Under the pieces are notes generated by a model. The model saw only the letters and a program-made list of their open reading frames with translations, was not told the DNA's origin and did not search any database. From an uncultured Sphingorhabdus sp. (GTDB lineage: Bacteria > Pseudomonadota > Alphaproteobacteria > Sphingomonadales > Sphingomonadaceae): 64,000 bases of DNA. Below, piece by piece: positions 10,540 to 27,277 of the stretch. The stretch is taken from positions 588,450 through 652,449 of the forward strand of contig CAXBEI010000002.1 in the NCBI GenBank assembly GCA_963974765.1. Reading direction: 5' to 3'. Within the stretch, counting starts at the first letter, position 1. Each line of letters opens with the position of its first letter. The position numbers and the translations under genes were made by a program.

Positions 10540-10612
10540 CCGTTCGCCCTGAGCCTGTCGAAGGGTTGGTTGCGCGCAATGATCGGCATTTCGACAGGCC
10601 CGGCACGAACGG
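10540..10612. repeat. REP/MITE-like palindromic element, intergenic copy
   Basis: CCGTTCGCCCTGAGCCTGTCGAAGG...TTTCGACAGGCCCGGCACGAACGG; its left arm is nearly identical to the element inside trmD. Confidence 0.8.
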
Positions 10613-23547: not shown

Positions 23548-24012
23548 ATGGCAGTAGCAATGAGAATGTCCCGCGGCGGATCCAAGAAACGCCCTTATTA
23601 CAAGATCGTTATCGCTGACGTCCGCGCACCACGCGACGGCAAGTTCATCGAACGGATCGGCAGCTACAACCCGCTGCTCGCAAAAGATGACGAGAAGCGC
23701 GTTGTTCTCGACACCGAGCGTGCGAAACATTGGCTTGAAATGGGCGCGCAGCCTTCCGACCGCGTTGCTCGTTTCCTGGACGTAGCCGGTCTGATGAAGC
23801 GCGAAGCGCGCAACAATCCGAACAAGGGCAAGCCAGGCGAGAAAGCCACCGAGCGTGTTGAAGAGAAAGCTGAAAAAGCGGCTGCTGCTGAAGAAGCAGC
23901 GAAAGAAGCTGCTGCGGCTCCTGCGCCGGTTGAAGAAGCTCCGGCTGAAGAAGCTGCTGCCGAAACATCCGCTGCTGAAGAAGCCAAGGCTGAAGACAAA
24001 GCCGAAGGTTAA
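23548..24012 (+). CDS. rpsP: 30S ribosomal protein S16 with Ala/Glu-rich tail
   Basis: [37 protein letters not shown]. Confidence 0.97.
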
Positions 24013-24027
24013 TCGACCAATGATAAC

Positions 24028-24075
24028 GCGCACCGTTCTTCCCGACTTTGTCGAAGAGGAACGGTGCGCTTTTTT
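24028..24075 (+). terminator. Intrinsic terminator between rpsP and rimM
   Basis: Perfect 11-bp stem GCGCACCGTTC/GAACGGTGCGC followed by TTTTTT. Confidence 0.75.
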
Positions 24076-24123
24076 GTGGTCGGCCTGTCATCATCACAGG
24101 CTCGGCCCGATCGGAATTGATCA

Positions 24124-24606
24124 ATGACCCCGGACAAACCCGTCCCGCTCGCCGTCATCATCGGCGCTCACGGGATCGCTGGCGAGGTCCGGCTCAAGCT
24201 ATTCTGTGACAGTATAGACAGCCTGGCTGTGCACAAGGATTTCAATGGCGGCGCGTTGACGCTGAAATCCGTCAAACCCCATAAGATGGGTGCAATTGCA
24301 AGGATTGCCGAAATCACCGACCGCAACGGCGCTGAAGCGGCCCGCGGCACCGAACTCACCGTCCCGCGCTCCGCCTTGCCGGAACTGGACGAGGATGAAT
24401 TTTACCATATCGACATCATCGGCTTGCGCTGCGTCTCCGATACCGGCGAGGAACTGGGCAAGATATTCGCCATCTACGAATTTGGCGCCGGCGATGTCAT
24501 CGAGATAGAACGGGCAAATGGCAAAAAGTTCATGGTTCCGGTGATCGCGATTGATATGCGGAATGATCCGGCAATCGTACAGGCCGATTTTGTCGAGCCG
24601 CAATGA
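24124..24606 (+). CDS. rimM: 16S rRNA processing protein RimM
   Basis: GAHGIAGEVRL, DRNGAEA, DEFYHIDIIG, FGAGDVIEI. Confidence 0.95.
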   Translation: MTPDKPVPLAVIIGAHGIAGEVRLKLFCDSIDSLAVHKDFNGGALTLKSVKPHKMGAIARIAEITDRNGAEAARGTELTVPRSALPELDEDEFYHIDIIGLRCVSDTGEELGKIFAIYEFGAGDVIEIERANGKKFMVPVIAIDMRNDPAIVQADFVEPQ

Positions 24607-24917
24607 TCCTGATTGTCATCATTTTCCTGATAGCAGGGCTGACCATAGCGATTATAGAAATTGCGAAACGGCTCAAGCCCGAAATAAGCCTCGCGTGGCT
24701 GCCATTCTGGGCCAGTCTTCCGATACCCGGATTGCTTGTGCTATATTGGCTATTCAACCTTTGGTGGCTGCAATCTGCTAACTGCCTGGATGGTCAGGTT
24801 TGTGGCCGGGAAGGCATCATGTACATGTCGGTTGGCGCTGCCGTCGGTATGTTTGGCAGTTTCTTCGTCGGCATGACAACGGCGATATTGTGGATAAACT
24901 GGCGCAAGAAGAAATGA
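24603..24917 (+). CDS. Hypothetical three-TM membrane protein between rimM and trmD
   Basis: 104-aa ORF overlapping the rimM stop and the trmD start by 4 nt each (ATGA junctions). Confidence 0.7.
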
Positions 24918-25774
24918 CCTTCACCGCCCAGATCCTGACCCTCTACCCGGAAATGTTTCCCGGACCGCTCGGCACGTCGCTGGCGGGCAGGGCGATGGCG
25001 GAGGGGAAGTGGACCTGTGACCCGATAAACCCCCGCGATTTTACCACCGACAAGCATCGCAGCGTCGATGACACGCCAGCGGGTGGAGGTGCGGGTATGG
25101 TGCTCAGGGCTGACATCATGGCCGCAGCGGTGGATCATGCGGTGGCCCGGATGGCAGAAACGATCGCGGCACAAAACTCCGTTCGTCCTGAGCCTGTCGA
25201 AGGACCTGGTGCCGAGCAAAGCGATGCCTCGACAACCCCGGATCAAGTCCGGGGACGAACGGTTGTGCCCGAAAAAACTCCCATCCTCGCCATGACCCCG
25301 CGCGGAAAGCCGCTGACACAGGCGCGTGTCCGCGAAATTGCCTCCGGTCCCGGCGTCACCATAATCTGCGGCCGTTTCGAAGGATTTGACGAGCGCCTGT
25401 TCGATGCCCGCGATATCGAGGAAGTCTCGATCGGCGACTATGTGCTTTCCGGCGGAGAAATGGGCGCTCTGGTGCTTTTAGACGCTTGCATTCGGCTGCT
25501 TCCCGGGGTAATGGGCGCGTCTTCTAGCGGAGATGACGAGAGTTTCGAGCACGGAATACTCGAATATCCGCAATATACCCGACCTCAAATATGGGAAGGG
25601 CGCATAATCCCTGAAGTCTTGCGATCGGGGGATCATGCGAAAATAGCTGCTTGGCGGAAACAAAGGGCAGAGGAAGATACACGGCTAAGGCGGCCGGATT
25701 TATGGGAGCGTCACAGGGACACTCCGGATCAGTCGCCCTCTGGTGCGCAGGAAAAAGATAAAGATAAGGAATAG
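24914..25774 (+). CDS. trmD: tRNA (guanine-N1)-methyltransferase TrmD with an in-frame repeat insertion
   Basis: [61 protein letters not shown]. Confidence 0.96.
25179..25262. mobile_element. 84-bp palindromic element (REP/MITE-like) inserted in frame in trmD
   Basis: Perfect 10-bp terminal inverted repeat CCGTTCGTCC/GGACGAACGG, internal CCCCGGATCAAGTCCGGGG hairpin, related to 10540-10612. Confidence 0.8.
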
Positions 25775-25777
25775 GTC

Positions 25778-26167
25778 ATGAACCTGATTCAAACACTCGA
25801 AAAAGAAGCCGTAGACGCATTTATCGCGTCGAAAGAAATCCCCGAATTCCGTGCTGGTGATACAGTGCGTATCGGTGTTCGCGTCGTTGAAGGCGAGCGC
25901 GTTCGTACCCAGAATTTCGAAGGTGTGTGCATCGCACGGACCAATCGCGGCATGGGCTCCAACTTCACCGTGCGCAAAATGTCGTTCGGCGAAGGCGTTG
26001 AGCGTGTGTTCCCGCTTTACTCTCCTAACATCGACAGCATCACCGTGGTTCGCCGCGGTATCGTGCGTCGTGCGAAACTTTACTATCTGCGTGGGCGGAC
26101 TGGTAAACGGGCCCGTATTGCGGAACGCCGTTTGAACCAGCCTGCGAAAGGCACAGAAGCAAAATAG
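25778..26167 (+). CDS. rplS: 50S ribosomal protein L19
   Basis: [48 protein letters not shown]. Confidence 0.98.
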
Positions 26168-26188
26168 ACTTCGCTTCATCAAAGTTTC

Positions 26189-26228
26189 AAACAGCCGGTT
26201 CTCCATCCAAGGATAACCGGCTGTTTTA
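26189..26228 (+). terminator. Intrinsic terminator after rplS
   Basis: AAACAGCCGGTT-loop-AACCGGCTGTTT followed by T. Confidence 0.75.
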
Positions 26229-26251
26229 ATATCAGGAACAGGAAAAGTTTC

Positions 26252-27277
26252 ATGGGTTACAAAATTGTAGTTGTCGGTGCGACGGGTAACGTCGGTCGCG
26301 AAATGCTCAACGTCCTCGCAGAGCGCGAATTTCCCTATGACGAGATTGCCGCAGTGGCATCCTCGCGGTCGCAAGGTAGCGAGATCGAGATTGGCGACAC
26401 CGGCAAGATGCTCAAGGTCCAGAATATCGAGAATTTCGATTTTTCGGGATGGGATATGGCTTTGTTCGCTGCAGGCTCCGGGCCGACCAAGGAATATGCG
26501 CCAAAGGCAGCCGCTGCCGGTTGTGTCGTAATTGACAACAGCTCGCTTTACCGGATGGACCCGGACGTGCCATTGATCGTGCCGGAAGTGAATCCGGAAG
26601 CGATCAGCGGCTATACCAAGCGCAATATCATCGCCAACCCCAATTGCTCGACCGCCCAGATGGTCGTGGCTTTGAAACCGCTGCATGATGCGGCAAAGAT
26701 CAAGCGTGTCGTTGTCTCGACCTATCAGTCGGTCTCCGGCGCAGGCAAGGGCGGCATGGACGAACTGTTCGAACAGTCCCGCGCGATTTTCGTCGGCGAC
26801 CCCAAGGAAAATCACGTCTTCACCAAGCAGATCGCGTTCAACGTGATCCCGCATATCGACGTGTTCCTCGACGACGGCTCGACCAAGGAAGAGTGGAAAA
26901 TGGTGGTCGAGACCAAGAAAATTCTCGATTCCAAGATCAAGGTCACCGCGACTTGCGTCCGCGTTCCGGTCTTTGTCGGCCACAGCGAGTCGATCAACAT
27001 CGAGTTTGAAAACGAGCTGTCTGCCAAGGACGCGCAAAAGATTCTACGCGACGCGCCCGGCATCATGCTGGTCGATAAGCGTGAGGACGAAGGCTATGTG
27101 ACGCCAGTCGAATGTGTCGGCGATGGCGCAACGTTCATCAGCCGCGTACGCGAAGATCCGACGGTTGAAAACGGCCTGAACATCTGGTGCGTCAGCGACA
27201 ATTTGCGCAAGGGTGCTGCGCTCAACGCCGTGCAGATCGCGGAATTACTAGGGCGCAAGCATCTGAAAAAGGGATGA
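26252..27277 (+). CDS. asd: Aspartate-semialdehyde dehydrogenase
   Basis: VGATGNVG, IDNSS, ANPNCST, STYQSVSGAG, CVRVPVFVGH, DNLRKGAALNAVQIAE. Confidence 0.97.
   Translation: MGYKIVVVGATGNVGREMLNVLAEREFPYDEIAAVASSRSQGSEIEIGDTGKMLKVQNIENFDFSGWDMALFAAGSGPTKEYAPKAAAAGCVVIDNSSLYRMDPDVPLIVPEVNPEAISGYTKRNIIANPNCSTAQMVVALKPLHDAAKIKRVVVSTYQSVSGAGKGGMDELFEQSRAIFVGDPKENHVFTKQIAFNVIPHIDVFLDDGSTKEEWKMVVETKKILDSKIKVTATCVRVPVFVGHSESINIEFENELSAKDAQKILRDAPGIMLVDKREDEGYVTPVECVGDGATFISRVREDPTVENGLNIWCVSDNLRKGAALNAVQIAELLGRKHLKKG

Follow-up and report, generated by a model that had tools for sequence, protein, structure and literature searches.

The 64,000-nucleotide stretch of DNA analysed here (the window) comprises positions 588450-652449 of contig C2 in a 3.44 Mb sphingomonad genome of 57% G+C; the genus name Parasphingorhabdus is applied to the host and its congeners. 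The window contains trmD, the gene for the tRNA m1G37 methyltransferase, and an 84 bp palindromic repeat is found fused in frame within this gene. The repeat belongs to a dispersed family, termed family A. It is considered to be a non-autonomous, gene-less family member that entered trmD in the ancestor of one Parasphingorhabdus subclade, was tolerated there and was later remodelled, and the full-length form of the family is considered to be a cassette with a GIY-YIG nuclease gene; a probability of about 0.85 is assigned to this explanation. The in-frame insertion is a fresh example of a known phenomenon and represents no new category. What makes it a new variant is its link to a GIY-YIG cassette, together with the finding that at least four repeat families have recurrently used one and the same TrmD loop.

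The palindromic element in trmD

TrmD is an essential enzyme with a knotted fold. The trmD gene at 24914-25774 (+ strand), identified by its open reading frame (ORF) and translation, starts with ATG at 24914 and has 286 codons; the whole genome contains no second TrmD match. Its product matches Pfam PF01746 (E = 1e-45), and TrmD structures in PDB match it on both sides of the insert with E values down to 1e-86. Conserved motifs are all intact, with GGGxGM, S/TPxG, GRxEGxDER and IGDxxLxGGE among the invariant columns. An AlphaFold2 model built from a 54-sequence alignment has a mean predicted local distance difference test (pLDDT) score of 70, with the core above 85, and the top 50 Foldseek matches to the model are TrmD without exception, at template modelling scores of 0.6-0.73 relative to the target. 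By family match, motifs and fold, the product is a TrmD of the SPOUT class.

The element spans 25179-25262 (+), from the second base of trmD codon 89 to the first base of codon 117. It encodes residues 89-116, between the GGGAGMV and MTPRG motifs, and reads in the trmD frame as a serine, 27 further residues and a valine. Its ends, CCGTTCGTCC and GGACGAACGG, form a perfect 10 bp terminal inverted repeat (10 of 10 positions complementary). The sequence-only reading had given the same size, termini, frame and position, and the assignment as a family A element is based on the terminal repeat, on membership of the family and on absence of the element from nine congeneric orthologues. As RNA, the 84 bp stretch has a predicted fold of -39.5 kcal/mol (z = -2.2). 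An Rfam scan of 24000-26500 at permissive E-values places no family on the element.

Two arms and a spacer make up the element. The left arm (25179-25205, +) consists of CCGTTCG and a stem, GTCC/GGAC, around the loop TGAGCCTGTCGAA. The spacer (25206-25227, +) diverges among species while the arms stay constant. The right arm (25228-25262, +) is modified and displays CTCGACAA, a CGTC-type hairpin CCCCGGATCAAGTCCGGGG at 25236-25254 and (GG)ACGAACGG. The hairpin, a member of a low-copy CGTC-type family with about five genome copies, stands in place of the GCTCAGC usual in the loop of the arm, and this replacement explains why the element had at first appeared chimeric; that impression holds for the loop only, as the right arm otherwise keeps the CTCGACAA and GGACGAACGG of family A. 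A canonical right arm, GCTTCGACAAGCTCAGCACGAACGG, is found at the same trmD site as part of a 72 bp element in four congeners (G001, G016, G005 and G009), and the modified form is common to the present genome, G012 and G003. The difference between the 84 bp and 72 bp forms is confined to the right arm. A GGCACAA/TTGTGCC pairing that extends beyond the 84 bp is not found in relatives and was left out of the element.

Alignment with orthologues shows that the extra sequence is longer than the element. The 28-codon element stands as originally described, but relative to insert-free TrmDs the whole extra region (25142-25276, +; codons ∼77-121) amounts to ∼40-44 residues: a helix-3 extension (10 residues), the element and the sequence VVPEK, with ∼12 residues before the element, where they extend helix 3, and ∼5 after it. 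Empty-site trmD orthologues differ by ∼17 further residues around the element, which blurs the exact points of insertion. In alignments with PDB chains, query residues 2-75 and 120-262 pair with chain residues 2-75 and 80-222, such that solved TrmDs have ∼4 residues between the two blocks.

In the AlphaFold2 model a helix at residues 66-88 and a strand at 124-133 enclose a coil at 89-123. The pLDDT score is below 50 at residues 96-119 and high on both flanks. Within the methyltransferase domain, the insert is thus predicted to form a disordered loop that connects helix 3 to strand 4. With a mean hydropathy of -1.2, the insert is hydrophilic. The loop comes before the N-terminal end of a strand that, through the TPRG at its C-terminal end, helps to form the S-adenosylmethionine pocket, and from the topology of the TrmD fold we infer that it faces away from the active site.

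These properties suggest how the element may have become established. Its point of entry would have been among the codons that specify the surface loop joining helix 3 to strand 4. The original element would have been 72 bp long, a multiple of three, and the 72-nt element is stop-free in four of six reading frames, so that most insertions of this length leave a gene unbroken and the element could be read through. The product would be a hydrophilic, disordered loop of 24-28 residues that the enzyme tolerates. From the open frame, the insert is presumed to be translated, and it is probably neutral.

Gain and remodelling at the TrmD loop

The trmD site was compared in 22 species of the genus, those with a readable trmD, and its length was taken as the number of residues from the AGMVLR(A/V)D(I/V)MA motif to the P(I/V)(L/V)AM strand. 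The site is empty in nine species (13-17 residues). Six carry a family A element alone (48-53 residues), which is 72 bp in four species and 84 bp in G012 and in the present genome, where the site measures 52 residues. One species has a family A element with a nested sub-type B element (62 residues) and one an unrelated G-rich palindrome, termed family D (46 residues). The remaining five have a family C element, translated as SRAQSRD...STSLDTNG, followed by A or B elements (75-101 residues). Altogether, the site is occupied in 13 species, by up to three elements from families A, B, C or D and in frame in every case, and TrmD varies from 244 to 334 residues within the genus, the latter in G008.

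Outside the genus, 78 TrmDs of other Sphingomonadaceae were measured between GMV(L/M)(R/K) and (T/S)PRG. Sixty have a short loop of 20-24 residues, one has a loop of 27 residues and 17 have loops of 44-70 residues. The long loops contain recognizable products of at least four repeat types, with the translated signatures PEPVEG/STSSGRT, SRAQSRD/STSLDTNG, GVGVG/PTPNPS and GTGRW/GPPPRxGE. As nine congeners, the outgroups and solved TrmDs all have a short loop, the element was gained at the trmD site and does not represent an ancestral loop; the objection that orthologues lacking the repeat might have an equally long loop does not hold. Repeats have been acquired recurrently at this same loop.

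In each of the ∼30 carriers the frame is open, the length is a multiple of three and there are no stop codons. This bears on whether the 84 nt might be left out of the mature protein, either by ribosomal bypassing or by removal from the mRNA. Hairpin-mediated bypassing is on record for phage T4 gene 60 and its relatives, which are linked to mobile elements (bioRxiv 10.1101/2022.08.31.505936). Bypassing would not need a conserved open frame of this kind, however, and the trmD insert has neither a pair of take-off and landing codons nor a stop codon at its start; such an origin of the mature protein is hardly credible.

In the locus tree the nine empty-site species form two clades of their own and the carriers form an unresolved bush. 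One clade with 97/98 support holds two species with the 72 bp element, one with A plus B and one with C plus B. As a single supported clade mixes these states, the site must have been remodelled after the first gain. Resolution among insert bearers is poor, with 10 of 19 forks open, and the number of events in the genus is not fixed by the tree.

It is possible, though rather unlikely, that there was one ancestral insertion, that the later diversity at trmD arose by recombination or gene conversion and slippage, and that the recurrence in other genera merely reflects this being the one permissive loop. The mixture of states within the 97/98 clade fits such a course, as do arms nearly identical to other genomic copies and the nested and half elements seen at the site (loci L008, L012 and L013). 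On the other hand, families C and D share little sequence with family A and need an entry event of their own, and different genera carry unrelated families at the site. A single insertion is in any case compatible with the entry, tolerance and remodelling of a family A element proposed here and bears only on the later steps. By the preferred explanation, these steps would be entry of a small CGTC-type hairpin into the right arm, giving the 84 bp form, and, in sister species, addition or swapping in of elements of families B and C.

Family A in the genome and in other proteins

The family A unit consists of CCGTTCG, a 4 bp stem, the 13-nt loop TGAGCYTGTCGAA and the closing stem. In the genome, 19 copies are identical to the 25-nt left arm and ∼119 match it at up to five mismatches, and a 15-nt loop core, CTGAGCYTGTCGAAG, is found in ∼90 exact copies, compared with none for the reversed control. 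That the trmD repeat has other genomic copies is thereby established. Only one of these is in the window: an intergenic element at 10540-10612 (+) with a left arm and a diverged right arm. As had been noted from the sequence, the trmD left arm matches this copy, with 3 mismatches in 27 positions (10540-10566); no such match appeared in 100 shuffles.

The stem displays covariation at its two middle pairs, with GTCC/GGAC in 42 copies, GTGC/GCAC in 17, GCCC/GGGC in 11 and GCAC/GTGC in six, an indication that the hairpin matters as a single strand. Family A is arranged as 44 inverted doublets, mostly intergenic, with units ∼17 nt apart and most often 71-72 nt long when measured from CCG to CGG, in addition to ∼40 single or diverged arms. 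Element lengths are 65-90 bp. No target-site duplication beyond chance is found at the 44 doublets. Their flanks are A/T-rich for ∼5 nt on both sides, with A at 40-48% at positions -5 to -3 compared with 21.5% in the genome, and G is nearly absent at position -2. The left flank is CACAAAACT in trmD and GAGAAAC in lhr. These A/T-rich flanks may reflect a target preference, one that is inseparable from an effect of intergenic composition.

The repeat extends far beyond the genus. Among 201 alphaproteobacterial genomes (∼197 genera), the exact 15-nt loop core is found in 36, at up to ∼100 copies, and the stems around it vary by lineage (CCGTTCGTCC here, CCTCATCC elsewhere). Conservation of the loop across the class is unusual for selfish DNA and suggests recognition by a conserved protein. 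A literature search with the family A DNA core and its typical peptide translations gave nothing relevant and no paper that gives its sequence.

At least four other bona fide proteins of the present genome hold family A in frame, with Pfam domains on both sides. The four are an Lhr-type helicase, where the element is inside the DEAD domain; UvrA, where it lies between the interaction and DNA-binding domains beside a family C element; TrpE (anthranilate synthase), where it separates the two domains; and the E2 component of pyruvate dehydrogenase, where it is in the linker. The Lhr site could be read in 28 congeners: it is empty in 14 (21 residues), has one element in ten (46-49 residues) and two elements in four (79 residues), the same pattern of accretion as at trmD. 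The proposal that a repeat-driven process of protein insertion, similar to that of Rickettsia, operates in this lineage is thus supported by the gain in trmD, by these four proteins and by the Lhr polymorphism.

A separate observation concerns a 461-codon ORF at C1:1164150-1165532 (-), outside the window, which has no Pfam match. Its N-terminal half contains at least three translated repeat families (HPEFISGP...VLKRVQDDE, SVRLERSRE...RLRSTRTDG and TVRPELVEG...STGSGRT). It may encode a protein made largely from repeat DNA, or the ORF may be spurious.

The trmD insert might also have been kept because it is useful, either as a peptide loop that modifies TrmD, for example in contacts with tRNA or a partner, or as an mRNA hairpin that tunes the stability or translation of trmD-rplS transcripts. 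The 27-nt arm has a mean pairwise identity of 97% among six species, compared with 70-88% at trmD third codon positions, and the insert has been retained while an entire subclade split into species. The same loop has been hit repeatedly, the predicted RNA fold is stable, and REPs (repetitive extragenic palindromic sequences) have been proposed as post-transcriptional control elements (PMC3733652). However, peptide sequence, length and even repeat family vary among close relatives (A, A plus B, C plus B, D), sister species thrive with no insert, the region is predicted to be disordered and the same family is present in unrelated proteins and linkers. Gene conversion from the ∼90 other copies explains the conservation of the arms equally well. 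A useful insert is therefore regarded as improbable.

A GIY-YIG nuclease gene between family A arms

As the genes that might mobilize the repeat, RAYT transposases and GIY-YIG nucleases had both been suggested. A profile search of the genome detects no RAYT. The only match to PF01797 (Y1_Tnp) is the TnpA of an IS200/IS605 element, which scores 148 bits with NF033573 and 44.5 bits with REP_Tyr_transpos, under the cut-off of 80, and there is no family A copy near it. The GIY-YIG part of the suggestion fared better: in relatives, a GIY-YIG gene is bracketed by exactly the arms of family A.

The IS200/IS605 tnpA gene itself lies outside the window at C2:1063466-1063819 (-). It has a typical upstream hairpin, CACTATCCTCCAGAAAATGAC...GTCATTTTCTGGAGGATAGTG, and its own terminal hairpins are unrelated to the repeat families.

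The genome has five small GIY-YIG genes in addition to uvrC. Hairpins bracket four of these genes, with a different family at each. Three of these four, all outside the window, are Ssn-like (96-101 residues), with CGTC-type or other hairpins: C1:1547306-1547530 with CGTCATCCTGAACTCGTTTCAGGA (69 copies), C1:400477-400698 with GTTCCCTGCCGCAGGGCAGGG (nine copies) and C2:881723-881941 with CGTCATGCCAGCGCAGGCTGGCATC (13 copies). As each Ssn-like gene has a hairpin family of its own, several parallel nuclease/hairpin pairs appear to be present in the genome.

The fourth is an intact cassette of C type (C2:414953-415219, -), bracketed by family C arms. A family C arm reads CCGTTCG-TGTC-GAGCGAAGTCGA-GACA and has the outer CCGTTCG and the GAGC...GTCGA loop in common with family A. 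The cassette immediately precedes dnaG and occupies this position in eight genomes of the genus, seven congeners and the present one, with arms 320 nt apart. The 3′ end of the gene runs into the family C arms, and the tail of the protein (ERLSTSLETNG...VRVERSRD) is encoded by the repeat.

A cassette of A type is found in 11 of 30 congeners at two syntenic loci, with arms 336-344 nt apart and a nuclease of ∼95-105 residues. In G016 the cassette is ∼376 bp long: CCGTTCGTCCTGAGCTTGTCGAAGGAC is followed by a leader of 22 nt and a gene of 94 codons, and a further 13 nt separate the gene from GTACTTCGACAAGCTCAGCACGAACGG. Its left arm, CCGTTCGTCCTGAGCTTGTCGAAGGAC, and right arm, CTTCGACAAGCTCAGCACGAACGG, are identical to the trmD arms of G016 and G001. 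Many doublet spacers, that of trmD excepted, retain the CTATCG of the 5′ untranslated region of the cassette. The present genome has only the first 60 nt of an A cassette, at the orthologous locus (C1:126288-126347, 95% identical). With the deletion of the gene, family A has become an orphan in this genome.

Similar arrangements are found in other families. In 14 A-rich genomes from outside the host family, six of 30 GIY-YIG loci fetched have family A cores close on both sides, compared with none of 13 yraN controls. A profile made for the purpose separates the GIY-YIG subfamily concerned (at least 110 bits) from other GIY-YIG proteins (at most 77 bits) in the 201 genomes. The subfamily is present in ten of the 24 genomes with at least four A cores and in nine of the other 177 (Fisher p = 4e-6). 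Nine of those ten genes, from nine alphaproteobacterial families other than that of the host, are flanked by A cores, on both sides in seven genomes and on one side in two; the tenth is in the present genome and belongs with family C. In genomes free of family A, a related hairpin, CCTCATCCTGAGGAGC-(small hairpin)-CGTCTCGAAGGATGAGG, is found beside the subfamily gene. With the congeners included, family A arms bracket the subfamily gene in 20 genomes. Both the arm-gene-arm arrangement and its statistical association with the repeat are direct observations. The structures nearest to the subfamily are UPF0213 proteins (PDB 1zg2 and 1ywl), and NCBIfam has no model that names it.

The nuclease-like YraN protein (UPF0102) was considered as a partner and rejected. 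Five family A copies surround yraN in the present genome, but family A is absent from all 13 yraN loci of other A-rich genomes, and the association is regarded as coincidence. The yraN locus here (C1:1730600-1731700; L123), outside the window, is probably merely a repeat-rich intergenic cluster.

Some features of family A are those of a classical REP/REPIN population spread by a RAYT, to which the GIY-YIG link would be incidental: two inverted hairpins ∼17 nt apart, no target duplication, a mostly intergenic location and a Y1_Tnp gene in the genome. That gene, however, encodes an IS200/IS605 TnpA below the RAYT cut-off, has hairpins of its own and has no family A copy nearby; the GIY-YIG subfamily gene, by contrast, is the one that family A arms bracket so widely. 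Spread by a RAYT is very improbable.

With the GIY-YIG cassette as the full-length form of family A, the same two arms would surround a UPF0213-type nuclease gene in the ∼376 bp element and enclose a short spacer in the gene-less one. The nuclease gene would be resident at fixed loci in relatives, in the way that a RAYT is to its REPINs, and the present genome would have lost the A-type gene and kept the sister cassette of family C. By analogy with known systems, the nuclease may act on the single-stranded hairpin and spread the repeats.

Several observations count against this explanation. The nuclease genes are at syntenic loci and do not jump, and the 44 doublets give neither a target-site duplication nor a datable recent insertion; nuclease-driven mobility therefore rests on analogy. 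The study of Ssn proteins shows cleavage of single-stranded DNA and an effect on transformation, not transposition (PMC11893778). Four A-rich genomes (G144, G202, G197 and G065) lack the subfamily gene, and the present genome lacks the A-type gene. Conservation of the arms above synonymous sites could reflect selection on a DNA or RNA hairpin, or gene conversion, instead of pure neutrality. The ∼17 extra residues that flank the element match no recognizable repeat.

Comparison with known repeat systems

Palindromes in frame within genes are the hallmark of the Rickettsia palindromic elements (RPEs; Ogata et al. 2000), as outlined in PMC10969869. Family A resembles RPEs in several respects: in-frame palindromes are found in unrelated housekeeping genes of an alphaproteobacterium, several families are present per genome and the added peptide segment is compatible with the fold (PMC10969869). 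It differs in sequence and in size (65-90 bp, compared with ∼150 bp for the RPE-1 type), in its host, a free-living marine sphingomonad as opposed to a reduced intracellular genome, and in that a gene-carrying full-length form, arm-GIY-YIG-arm, can be identified. The trmD element is thus an RPE analogue and not a member, set apart from RPE-1 to RPE-10 by its length (72-84 bp) and host.

Intragenic REPs have been catalogued by Di Nocera et al. 2013, including those in uvrA in other phyla and in E1/E2 genes of Sphingopyxis alaskensis (PMC3733652). TrmD is not listed among the intragenic REPs of that paper. Dimers of CGTC- and GTAG-tagged REPs encode 20-30 residues (PMC3733652). Family A likewise forms head-to-head hairpin dimers that are found inside genes, notably those for pyruvate dehydrogenase E2 and uvrA (PMC3733652). 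Whereas CGTC REPs have an 8-9 bp stem and a 4-5-nt loop, family A has a covarying inner stem of 4 bp, the 13-nt loop TGAGCYTGTCGAA and a CCGTTCG outer stem (PMC3733652). The hairpin at 25236-25254, on the other hand, fits the CGTC REP format on the minus strand (CGTC + CCCGGAC...; PMC3733652).

Ssn GIY-YIG proteins (cd10448) are encoded by genes flanked by dispersed hairpins, which they cut as single-stranded DNA, and an architecture similar to that of insertion sequences has been noted (PMC11893778). Very few of these repeats are intragenic, 2% in N. meningitidis (PMC11893778). As in the Ssn/SRM system, a small single-domain GIY-YIG gene is bracketed here by a hairpin repeat dispersed at tens to hundreds of copies, and a conserved unpaired 5′ tag orients the repeat (PMC11893778). 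Unlike Ssn, the nuclease of families A and C belongs to a separate subfamily near UPF0213, more than 30 bits from the Ssn-like paralogues. In a comparison by eye, family A reads CGTCCT, whereas the SRM motif HGTCWY... needs A or T at the fifth position (PMC11893778).

Similarities to REPIN-RAYT systems (Bertels & Rainey; PMC8049555) include a repeat-flanked, single-copy resident gene that is vertically inherited at a fixed locus, as well as gene-less hairpin doublets, no target duplication and repeats that outlive loss of the gene (PMC8049555). The resident gene here encodes a GIY-YIG nuclease and not an HUH/Y1 transposase. The element also resembles a miniature inverted-repeat transposable element in that both termini are common to a longer, gene-carrying element, the G016 cassette. 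It differs in that there is no target-site duplication beyond chance, and the parent element encodes a nuclease, not a known transposase, at syntenic loci. The system works like Ssn/SRM and REPIN-RAYT yet fails membership of both, the first by its different GIY-YIG clade and repeat motif, the second by the lack of a RAYT.

It is tentatively proposed, at somewhat less than even odds, that families A, C and relatives with TGAG...TCGAA loops form, with a resident UPF0213-type GIY-YIG nuclease, a second REPIN-RAYT-like system of different nuclease chemistry. The gene would stay fixed while the doublets multiply, and these would land preferentially in permissive loops of essential proteins (TrmD helix 3/strand 4, Lhr, UvrA, TrpE and E2 linkers) that then collect further elements. 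If this is true, a minimal GIY-YIG domain drives the copying of DNA hairpins by a mechanism so far undescribed. To our knowledge, the GIY-YIG domain has no strand-transfer activity.

Of more general interest is that TrmD accommodates 24-90 additional residues, encoded by repeats, in one particular loop. Not only in Rickettsia but also in free-living marine bacteria, selfish hairpin DNA continues to generate variation in protein length. The genus offers a good system for the study of element entry and turnover, as its trmD and lhr sites include empty, single, stacked and swapped states. The UPF0213-type GIY-YIG gene is a concrete candidate driver of a very widespread alphaproteobacterial repeat that is without name or partner in the searchable literature. 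For annotation, it is relevant that the repeats yield many spurious ORFs of the PFVLSLSK, FDRLRTNG and LRQAQGER kind and inflate gene lengths.

Neighbouring genes

The gene order around trmD is ffh-rpsP-rimM-(small hydrophobic/membrane ORF)-trmD-rplS, the usual operon apart from the small ORF. This ORF, at 24603-24917 (+), has 104 codons, is strongly hydrophobic and takes up the whole space from rimM to trmD, sharing bases with the rimM stop codon at its start and with the start of trmD at its stop (ATGA). An additional small membrane protein in the conserved trmD operon is unusual. The rpsP gene (23548-24012, +) encodes a ribosomal protein S16 of 154 residues with an Ala/Glu/Lys-rich C-terminal tail of ∼70 residues.

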